Shown: positions 41,260-42,822 of the stretch, one piece after another
How the letters are laid out: each line of letters starts with the position of its first letter
Position numbering within the stretch: the stretch's first letter is position 1
DNA from: Chlamydiota bacterium
GTDB taxonomy: Bacteria > Chlamydiota > Chlamydiia > Chlamydiales > Rhabdochlamydiaceae
DNA length: 64,000 bases
Direction: 5' to 3'
Assembly: GCA_030916885.1 (NCBI GenBank)
Contig: JAUPVT010000064.1
Coordinates: 6,618-70,617 of the forward strand
Translations under genes and position numbers: made by a program
The notes under the pieces: model-generated
Told to the model about the DNA's origin: nothing
Seen by the model: the letters and a program-made list of their open reading frames with translations, nothing else
Database searches by the model: none

Positions 41260-42822
41260 ATGTTTAAAAAAAGTAATAATATCATTGAAAATCAAATCAA
41301 TTTTCTGCTTTTGTCAGCCGCTGTTGTAGAACTATTCCCAAAGGCTCTCTTAGTAGAGGGTCAAGGGACAGAGACTTGTTTTTTTTGTGATATCGTTTTC
41401 CCTTTTGATTTTGAACCCTATCTTTTAGGGATTATTGAAGACAGAATGAGGATGATTCATAAAGAGAATAGGACTCTAAAATCTCTTGAGATGACACCCA
41501 GTAATGCTGCTTTGTGGATGGAGCACCAAAAGCAGTATCTAATCGCTAAAAATCTAAAAAAGACGTCATGTTCTTTGGTGACCATGGGGCAAATAGGGGA
41601 GTTTGCTACATGGGTTTCTCATTTTAATCTCCCTACGAATAGAATTACATTTACGACAAAATTAAAAGAATCTTTTATTGTTTGCTCTTCAATTCCAGAT
41701 ATTGTTCGAATTGTTGGCATAGCGAACAATTCTTACAAGCAGAAGCGTTTATTTTGGCAGGAGCACAATCATCTTCAACTGATTTGCGATATGCGACTTT
41801 TCATGCCTTTAAAAAACCAGAAAGGTTGGGTTTGGCTACCTAAAGCAGAAGCTGTAAAAAATATTTTGATAAACTATTGGAAAAAAGAATCTTTCAAGGA
41901 AAATATTGAATTCATTACTTCTCCTTATTTGCCAACAACTATAAATAGCTATGATACTATATCTGCGTATCATAAACAGGTGTTTCAAAACTCTCAAAAA
42001 AAGATGAATAAGTTAGCAGAGCTTACTTGGATTACAAATCCAGACTCTAACGATATGCAACAAGGACTTTTTCAGCCTTTTTGTTATTTGACGGATTCCA
42101 CTCACTTATTTTGCTTGAAAGAGAACTTATTAAAAGAGTGTATTTCTTCCTTGCAATTCATTTTAAAAACCCCTAAAATCTTGGGTTTTGAGTTCCAAAT
42201 TATTTTACGCACTTCTCATGGTAAAATTAGAAAAAAAAGTGACATGCGTTTATCTATCATGCAAATGGCTTTAAAGGAACTGCAGTTAGACTACCGTGTG
42301 GAGAAAAAAGGCCACTCTGATTTTATAGAGCGTGTAGAAATACACATTGCAGATAGCTTAAAAAGATGGTGGTCTGGGCCATTTTTAAGCATTTTAAAGA
42401 GTGATCAAGAAGTAATTCTTTTGCGTTCTATGTTTGGTAACTTAGAAAGAATGATGGGACTGCTTGTTGAGCAAACAGGAGGTAAGCTCCCTTTTTGGTT
42501 AAATAATGAAAATATACGTATTATTGTGGTTAATTCTGAAAGCAGAGTTTACGCTGAGACTATTTGTTCTCAATTGAGTCAAAAAGGCATTAAAGTATTA
42601 ATGGATTATCAATATGGCATTTCTTTATCGCAGCGTTTCTATGAGGCAATTAAAGCATGTATTTCTTATATTGTGCTTATTGGCGAAAAGGAGCGGTTAA
42701 CAAATACGCTTACTTTGCATGAGTCAGGCTTAAATCAAGAACAGGGCATAACGTTAGATGCTTTGTTTACACGGATACAAATGGCAACTGGGGGTAAGAA
42801 CTCTGAATCTGAGAATCAATAG
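41260..42822 (+). CDS. Threonyl-tRNA synthetase-like protein lacking catalytic residues (pseudo-ThrRS)
   Basis: Colinear with ThrRS (editing, core and anticodon domains: THLFC, GNLERMMGLLVE, LPFWL, IGEKE) but KPMNC, HRNE and MIH are replaced; sits in the thrS position upstream of infC. Confidence 0.85.
   Translation: MFKKSNNIIENQINFLLLSAAVVELFPKALLVEGQGTETCFFCDIVFPFDFEPYLLGIIEDRMRMIHKENRTLKSLEMTPSNAALWMEHQKQYLIAKNLKKTSCSLVTMGQIGEFATWVSHFNLPTNRITFTTKLKESFIVCSSIPDIVRIVGIANNSYKQKRLFWQEHNHLQLICDMRLFMPLKNQKGWVWLPKAEAVKNILINYWKKESFKENIEFITSPYLPTTINSYDTISAYHKQVFQNSQKKMNKLAELTWITNPDSNDMQQGLFQPFCYLTDSTHLFCLKENLLKECISSLQFILKTPKILGFEFQIILRTSHGKIRKKSDMRLSIMQMALKELQLDYRVEKKGHSDFIERVEIHIADSLKRWWSGPFLSILKSDQEVILLRSMFGNLERMMGLLVEQTGGKLPFWLNNENIRIIVVNSESRVYAETICSQLSQKGIKVLMDYQYGISLSQRFYEAIKACISYIVLIGEKERLTNTLTLHESGLNQEQGITLDALFTRIQMATGGKNSESENQ

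Follow-up and report, generated by a model that had tools for sequence, protein, structure and literature searches.

A ThrRS-like reading frame upstream of infC

The window analysed here, i.e. a 64,000-nucleotide stretch of DNA that belongs to contig C59 in an assembly of 1.37 Mb from Candidatus Rhabdochlamydia, carries at positions 41260-42822 of its forward strand an open reading frame (ORF) of 520 codons plus stop whose product (P0001) resembles threonyl-tRNA synthetase (ThrRS), and which we term pseudo-ThrRS. An initial annotation, made from the letters alone, had described this ORF as uninterrupted and colinear with ThrRS, as standing at the head of infC-rpmI-rplT-pheS, and as encoding a catalytically stripped paralogue that was repurposed rather than decaying. 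Translation confirms that the frame is free of internal stop codons, and the gene order tRNA-Val(GAC), ORF, infC, rpmI, rplT, pheS was verified. The ATG at 41260 is shared by all congeners in an alignment of nine Rhabdochlamydia species; a longer alternative frame, from a GTG at 41218, overlaps the tRNA-Val gene (41178-41251).

Pfam finds a single match in pseudo-ThrRS, to the anticodon-binding domain (ABD) HGTP_anticodon (PF03129, residues 420-507, E 6e-10), and the score against the thrS equivalog model TIGR00418 is 137 bits, below the cut-off of 383.65 that defines membership. Nevertheless every match in a sequence search of the PDB is a ThrRS (E 1e-18 to 1e-6), and an AlphaFold model calculated from a 30-sequence alignment (pLDDT 86, pTM 0.84) contains the N2, class II core and class IIa anticodon-binding domains of the ThrRS fold. 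The structural superposition on ThrRS that had been suggested for this protein supports the assignment: the best Foldseek match in the PDB is 1qf6_A (E. coli ThrRS, E 7e-35, TM-score 0.67), the top 50 matches are ThrRS chains only, and the highest-ranking ones are the full-length E. coli and S. aureus enzymes, at 16% identity.

Loss of catalytic and editing residues

The residues of pseudo-ThrRS were compared, in E. coli numbering, with those of the canonical ThrRS of the same genome (P0042, 641 amino acids), in which all textbook motifs are present. Both halves of the editing site are replaced, HTSAH (H73/H77) by QINFL and DLCRGPH (D180/C182/H186) by TWVSHFN, and the equivalent of K156 is also lost. 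In motif 2, HRHE (R363/E365) has become TNPD and the RVR that holds the second arginine (R375) has become QPF, whilst QCGTIQLD is replaced by SGPFLSIL. Around KPMNCP, which contains Cys334, some 33 residues are deleted; measured against the active ThrRS type that lacks the TGS domain, the core is short by about 33 plus about 17 residues. The canonical segment GLFRVRSFHQDDAH corresponds to GLFQPFCYLTDSTH in pseudo-ThrRS, with His385 alone retained there, and HRALFGSVER corresponds to LRSMFGNLER, where His511 is Leu and the motif-3 arginine (R520) survives in GNLER. One of the three zinc ligands (Cys334, His385, His511) is thus retained, and alignment together with Pfam shows the TGS domain to be absent and the ABD to be present. 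These comparisons bear out most of what had been read by eye, namely the replaced editing positions, the lost motif-2 arginines, the substitution of His511 with retention of His385 and the motif-3 Arg, and the domain content. For the Cys334 region, the deletion stands, but the reported replacement of this cysteine by serine does not, the segment being deleted or unalignable.

A scan with NF011500, the model for a free-standing Ser-tRNA(Thr) hydrolase, gives pseudo-ThrRS 37.3 bits against a threshold of 362, by way of the ABD only. The catalytic and editing residues are missing from 35 of 35 sampled members, drawn from at least 8 chlamydial families, of the pseudo-ThrRS family described below and retained in 21 of 21 canonical chlamydial ThrRS, and the former pocket positions vary freely among the 35. 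Judged by its lost residues, pseudo-ThrRS cannot be a ThrRS enzyme. Since all sampled members lack the same residues, catalysis was lost before these chlamydial families diverged. As had been anticipated, the true ThrRS is encoded elsewhere: a canonical thrS lies on another contig (G000:C33:2558-4225) and scores 672.5 bits to TIGR00418, above the cut-off, and it is to this gene that the charging of tRNA-Thr is assigned.

Selection on the first 415 residues

Orthologues of pseudo-ThrRS are present in all eight other Rhabdochlamydia species at 75-89% identity; the first 415 codons are free of lesions in nine of nine congeners, and are open also in dozens of other genera. Among the nine species, the pairwise ratio of nonsynonymous to synonymous substitution rates (dN/dS, method NG86) is 0.18 overall, 0.16 for the N2-like module and 0.17 for the core, and ranges from 0.12 to 0.23 for residues 1-415, with bootstrap upper limits of at most 0.33. 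The same method gives 0.08 for canonical thrS, 0.13 for infC, 0.09 for rplT and 0.17 for the adjacent methyltransferase gene; for the ABD part of pseudo-ThrRS the ratio is higher, at 0.34. Estimates by YN00 and maximum likelihood are 0.21-0.36. A comparison of orthologues had been proposed as the means of recognising a decaying pseudogene, which would be expected to show stops, frameshifts or a dN/dS near 1. The values obtained are far below 1, and breaks are confined to the ABD, in three of the nine congeners. On these substitution patterns pseudo-ThrRS is not a neutral or decaying pseudogene, and residues 1-415 are under purifying selection.

The three ABD breaks each involve a different lesion, all in the final 19% of the gene's length: G001 carries a TAA together with a +1 T frameshift, G006 an 8-nt deletion besides a TAT to TAA change, and G004 a deletion of about 68 nt. 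As each of these species has intact relatives according to the matrix of synonymous distances (dS) for thrS, and as the lesions differ, the three breaks are independent. In the three species affected, the dN/dS of residues 1-415 is unchanged (0.15-0.20). The ABD is also cleanly missing from several genera of Rhabdochlamydiaceae (L018, L022, L023, L025) and, beyond that family, from genomes in f23 (G088 and G095) and in f5 (G138). Because the domain is repeatedly broken or absent with no change in the selection acting on the remainder of the gene, the pattern of sequence change indicates that the selected unit is the N2-like module plus class II core (residues 1-415), and that the ABD is optional.

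Distribution and conserved patches of the family

A family profile built from 13 members identifies a second ThrRS-like gene, of 375-613 amino acids, beside a canonical ThrRS of 630-690 amino acids, not only in Rhabdochlamydiaceae but in at least seven other GTDB families of the class. When 1.84 billion cluster representatives were searched with this profile, the 150 top matches (379-733 bits, 333-618 amino acids) were all of the short, high-scoring type, so that the family can be put at 150 or more clusters at the 50% identity level; canonical chlamydial ThrRS score at most 315 bits with the same profile. The family is monophyletic with support of 100 in two trees, and the branching order within it broadly matches that of the chlamydial families.

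Conservation in at least 75% of the 35 sampled members extends to 67 positions, of which 41 are common with real ThrRS and correspond to fold determinants, and 26 are family-specific. The latter include polar residues and, when placed by secondary-structure element, form two clusters: E77, M78, N82, A83, H89, Q92 and A96 on the former editing-pocket side of N2, and C285, I295, S296, S297, L298, F300, I301 and I307 in the helix after motif 2. Both family motifs are present in P0001, EMxxxNA...H..Q at residues 77-96 and ISSLxFI at residues 295-301. Used as a search pattern, the core-helix motif (C285-I307) recovered 42 loci, ABD-less ones included.

Database labels for the family are inconsistent, ranging over 'threonyl-tRNA synthetase', 'Threonine--tRNA ligase 2' and anticodon-domain protein, which can mislead metabolic reconstructions. 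The least diverged dead member (G035:C29:13321-15039, locus L042; 591 amino acids) scores 449.7 bits to TIGR00418 and so passes its cut-off; it is without the zinc ligands and editing residues, yet is annotated as threonine--tRNA ligase. Automatic annotation will count two ThrRS in genomes of this kind.

Origin from a resident TGS-less thrS

Slowly evolving dead members such as that of G035 share diagnostic residues with active ThrRS of other phyla of the YRYE/QGPTxQVD/GSLER type, i.e. with Tyr in front of the motif-2 Arg position together with xGPxxxxD and GSLER, whilst the canonical chlamydial ThrRS is of the HRHE/QCGTIQLD/GSIER type, like a Clostridiales enzyme. A first tree, which had a single outgroup, could not place the family and was replaced by one of 58 sequences that included active ThrRS of other phyla. 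In the latter, canonical chlamydial and Clostridiales ThrRS are split from the other type plus the dead family with support of 100, and the dead family (support 100, stem length 1.09) is nested among active ThrRS of the other type. An approximately unbiased (AU) test rejects the grouping of the dead family with canonical chlamydial ThrRS in one clade (log-likelihood difference 40.7, p = 0.0039), a result that is tempered by the choice of this clade after the first tree had been inspected. The description of pseudo-ThrRS as a ThrRS paralogue accordingly survives in part: it is a ThrRS relative beside a second thrS, but not, by this test, a duplicate of the working chlamydial gene.

The nearest active relatives with readable contigs, P0245 (589 amino acids) and P0254 (586 amino acids, from Candidatus Theseobacter exili of the PVC group), are both TGS-less, and both are encoded in a tRNA-Val(GAC)-thrS-infC-rpmI-rplT-pheS-pheT arrangement. 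Active TGS-less ThrRS of this kind, 560-590 amino acids long, resemble pseudo-ThrRS in fold (1qf6, 1nyq), in the order N2, core and ABD, in genomic slot with an upstream tRNA-Val(GAC), in lineage-diagnostic residues and in tree position. They differ from it in that pseudo-ThrRS has lost catalytic and editing residues as well as core segments and evolves several times faster. The simplest reading of these phylogenetic and positional data is that pseudo-ThrRS is the in-situ descendant of the resident TGS-less thrS of the operon, displaced by a second thrS of another lineage; the latter, TGS-bearing gene may derive from horizontal transfer or from an older duplication.

Genomic context and the infC junction

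The features of the locus are collected in Table 1. The placement of tRNA-Val(GAC) directly upstream and infC directly downstream of the ThrRS relative was found at 20 of 20 loci, and in three further genomes of families f23 and f5. As the tRNA also adjoins active TGS-less thrS in two loci (L156 and L157), the tRNA-Val/thrS adjacency is ancestral.

Table 1. Features of the pseudo-ThrRS locus in the window.
Feature	Position	Strand	Basis and remarks
Candidate promoter of a tRNA-Val/pseudo-thrS/infC transcript, TTGATT-18-TATCAT	41122..41151	+	Consensus scan, about 26 nt 5' of tRNA-Val; weak, site count not above shuffled expectation
tRNA-Val(GAC)	41178..41251	+	ARAGORN, Rfam RF00005 66.6 bits; the genome's only one, CCA not encoded, ends 8 nt before the pseudo-ThrRS ATG
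Pseudo-ThrRS ORF, P0001	41260..42822	+	520 amino acids plus stop
N2 (editing-domain)-like module, residues 1-165	41260..41754	+	Alignment, conservation, dN/dS 0.16, AlphaFold model; editing residues gone
Linker and class II core remnant, residues 166-415	41755..42504	+	Alignment, dN/dS 0.17; about 33 residues including the Cys334 segment deleted
Anticodon-binding domain (HGTP_anticodon)	42505..42780	+	Pfam, residues 420-507; intact in the window genome
Nearly invariant block that falls in the ABD-coding stretch; presumed to act in cis on infC (leader, promoter or ribosome-binding region)	42565..42822	+	Third-position invariance, nine-species DNA alignment
infC (IF3), start codon uncertain, probably non-ATG	42803..43330	+	About 20 nt of the conserved N-terminal coding sequence precede the pseudo-ThrRS stop
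rpmI (L35)	43348..43545	+	Gene-order annotation
rplT (L20)	43586..43942	+	Gene-order annotation
pheS	44005..45027	+	Gene-order annotation

The 8 nt between the tRNA-Val discriminator and the ATG (AATTTTCT, within 41251-41262) contain no Shine-Dalgarno sequence, and after 3' processing of the tRNA the pseudo-ThrRS mRNA would be nearly leaderless. At the other end of the gene, the pseudo-ThrRS stop falls within the conserved 5' coding part of infC, giving an overlap of 20 nt in the window and of 10-20 nt in most Rhabdochlamydiaceae; this holds also for ABD-less forms, in which the deletions left the frame intact up to the junction. In other families a gap of 0-86 nt separates the two genes and there is no overlap; in the three congeners with a broken ABD, the ORF ends 189-269 nt upstream of infC. 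No ATG lies near the conserved N-terminus of the infC product (TLNLRINREIR), the only in-frame one upstream being at 42758 and absent from congener G004, and a GGGGGT run at 42790-42795 precedes a CTG (42803) and an ATC (42815) in the start region. A non-ATG start of infC seems likely, and such starts occur in genes for initiation factor 3 (IF3) elsewhere. The overlap suggests that translation of pseudo-ThrRS and infC is probably coupled.

The DNA preceding infC is itself conserved. In the six intact congeners, third-codon-position invariance is 0.83-0.90 across codons 436-510 against about 0.5 elsewhere, and dS in this block is 0.17 against 0.53 elsewhere; in the nine-species DNA alignment some 250 nt before infC are almost invariant, even in the three species in which the frame is lost. 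As this DNA is conserved even where it no longer codes, the last 250 nt or so presumably serve also as infC leader or ribosome-binding region. RNAalifold applied to the block, whose near-invariance leaves little scope for such a test, gave a covariation term of about zero with 2 of 86 pairs compensatory; an Rfam scan returned only the tRNA and matched no leader family, and a sigma-70 scan of the region found 10 sites against 7.9 expected, with no convincing internal infC promoter.

The slot is occupied differently in some genomes. In G190 the pseudo-ThrRS gene is deleted and tRNA-Val abuts infC, and at one locus of family f19 (G116, L153 2359-3069, reverse strand) an unrelated low-complexity protein of 236 amino acids with a hydrophobic segment replaces pseudo-ThrRS between tRNA-Val(GAC) and infC. 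A full-length match of 640 bits in a 2.3-Mb Rhabdochlamydiaceae genome (G120:C3:702899-704386) contains two in-frame TGA codons, which could reflect recent pseudogenisation, sequencing error or read-through. Upstream of tRNA-Val, the orthologue in G002 (locus L011) of the S-adenosylmethionine-dependent methyltransferase gene at 40442-41083 (reverse strand) of the window is split over three frames and is a pseudogene.

Proposed function and alternatives

The data can be accommodated by the following scheme. In the chlamydial ancestor, the charging of tRNA-Thr passed to a second, TGS-bearing thrS at another locus, after which the resident thrS lost zinc binding, ATP and threonine binding and editing, whilst being inherited vertically and kept open by purifying selection. 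The dead protein would now do no chemistry of its own but serve as a subunit for binding, scaffolding or regulation; its working surfaces would probably be the two patches that were remodelled and then frozen (N2 E77-A96 and helix C285-I307), and its most likely partner would be RNA or protein of the co-expressed translation apparatus. A trans-acting, non-catalytic binding function of this sort is what the selection and conservation data favour, and we regard it as reasonably probable. That the resident synthetase has more specifically become a dedicated component of the translation apparatus (e.g. ribosome-, IF3- or tRNA-associated), made in a constant ratio to IF3 through translational coupling, is a possibility put forward tentatively. 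The original suggestion of a repurposed pseudo-enzyme is therefore upheld as regards the loss of catalysis, whilst the RNA-binding regulator using the retained ABD that had been offered as an example is weakened by the loss of that domain in three of nine congeners and in several genera.

Several observations count against a binding function in trans. Five genomes of family f20 (presumably Chlamydiaceae, to judge from genomes of 1.0-1.4 Mb and 23 species in one genus) lack the gene at this slot, and lack tRNA-Val there too; single genomes of f5 and f19 have lost it, and in a few more (G120, G110, G124) it contains internal stops. Pseudo-ThrRS is thus widely retained but not essential. In trees it evolves 5-8 times faster than canonical thrS, and part of the conservation at its 3' end is owed to infC signals, not to protein. 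The motif-1 proline of the class II dimer interface varies among family members, and the median isoelectric point of the family is 6.25, not consistently basic (the basic value in Rhabdochlamydia fits AT-rich composition), so that neither dimerisation nor nucleic-acid binding is to be assumed.

Some of these points would suit a relic that acts in cis only, in which transcription and translation through the ORF deliver ribosomes and signals to infC and the protein, having no function of its own, is only constrained to fold harmlessly. On this view the 3' part of the ORF would house the infC leader or promoter, and ribosomes terminating at the stop would re-initiate at the overlapping infC start. 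The near-invariance of the last 250 nt even where they are non-coding, the overlap with infC in most Rhabdochlamydiaceae with ABD-less forms kept in frame to the junction, the lack of an ATG near the infC start and the dispensability of the gene in several lineages are all in its favour. However, 415 residues remote from infC show a dN/dS of 0.16-0.17, on a par with that of a working neighbour enzyme, the methyltransferase, and near-invariant polar residues persist in two patches across long-diverged families; moreover, three congeners end the ORF well before infC with the N-terminal dN/dS unchanged, and other families have a gap in place of the overlap. We consider this explanation rather unlikely. 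An autoregulator in the manner of E. coli, i.e. a dead ThrRS that binds a tRNA-like operator or tRNA through its ABD and represses itself or infC, is improbable. It can draw on the intact ABD and its HGTP_anticodon match in the window, on the E. coli precedent of thrS repression and on the tRNA gene directly upstream, but the 8 nt from tRNA to ATG leave no room for an operator, no Rfam leader was matched, the ABD has the higher dN/dS of 0.34, and this domain is broken in three of nine congeners and absent from several genera and families in which the rest of the protein is not relaxed.

A decaying pseudogene that has yet to acquire stops in the window genome would account for very fast evolution, ABD decay in some congeners, the sporadic stops in G120, G110 and G124, and complete loss in some lineages. 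It is very improbable given a frame that has stayed open in dozens of genera whose separation dates back to the chlamydial radiation, dN/dS far below 1 with tight bootstrap intervals, and family-specific invariant residues; true decay next door, in the methyltransferase gene of G002, looks different. We give scarcely any credence to a highly divergent active ThrRS or free-standing editing factor: the ThrRS fold, the retained motif-3 Arg and His385 and the weak, ABD-only match to NF011500 (37 bits) are set against the loss of two of three zinc ligands, both motif-2 arginines, the threonine- and ATP-binding residues and all editing residues, against pocket positions that are not conserved even within the family, and against the presence of a complete canonical thrS. 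Active enzyme, editing factor and neutral pseudogene were accordingly rejected on the lost residues, the canonical thrS and dN/dS.

Comparison with known systems

A literature search retrieved no description of the chlamydial pseudo-ThrRS family, and no bacterial ThrRS-derived non-enzyme is described in the literature searched. New here are the genus-level selection figures, the repeated independent loss of the ABD with unchanged selection on the rest, the invariant infC-proximal DNA, the AU-tested origin apart from the working chlamydial thrS, and the identical context of the nearest active relatives. The case is unusually well dated, in that PVC-group relatives still carry an active enzyme of the ancestral type in the same cluster and the replacing enzyme can be identified. 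Its natural variants, full-length, ABD-less and deleted, form a graded series that bears on what becomes of an essential gene once a xenologue or paralogue has displaced it, on which part of a relic carries the new function, and on how IF3 expression signals intertwine with the relic. Thanks to this series, such questions are open to direct experiment in those environmental chlamydiae that can be cultivated.

In E. coli, thrS is repressed when its own product binds a mimic of the anticodon arm in the mRNA leader, and the 3' part of the gene houses signals for infC expression. The chlamydial locus is alike in having a ThrRS-fold protein at the head of the infC operon and, by our reading of the invariant block, infC signals in the 3' part of the gene. 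It differs in that the E. coli mechanism needs the ABD together with an operator in a long leader, whereas pseudo-ThrRS has a leader of 8 nt and a dispensable ABD. The crenarchaeal ThrRS-ed (NF011500) is likewise a non-aminoacylating ThrRS relative, but keeps its editing site, whilst pseudo-ThrRS has lost the H73/H77, D180/C182/H186 and K156 equivalents.

Recycled synthetases are known from textbook cases such as HisZ, POLG2, mL39 and the HisRS-like domain of Gcn2. HisZ, a HisRS paralogue, is the regulatory subunit of ATP phosphoribosyltransferase, with HisG as its partner and its pocket kept as an allosteric site. Like pseudo-ThrRS, it is a class IIa core kept as a non-catalytic protein under selection, in which the anticodon-binding domain is unneeded; it differs in keeping the amino-acid pocket, the residues of which are not conserved in the pseudo-ThrRS family, and in having HisG. 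mL39 of the mitoribosome and POLG2, the accessory subunit of DNA polymerase gamma, are class IIa synthetase-derived non-enzymes in which ThrRS/GlyRS-like domains serve as structural subunits of the translation or replication machinery. They are eukaryotic or organellar, retain other domain subsets and have no tie to an infC operon, and were compared via the fold search only, of which the top 50 matches were all ThrRS. As in mL39, the part selected in pseudo-ThrRS takes in the N-terminal N2 module of ThrRS. Should pseudo-ThrRS prove to be a dedicated component of the translation machinery, bacteria would possess an equivalent of mL39 or HisZ, one that has persisted since the chlamydial families radiated.

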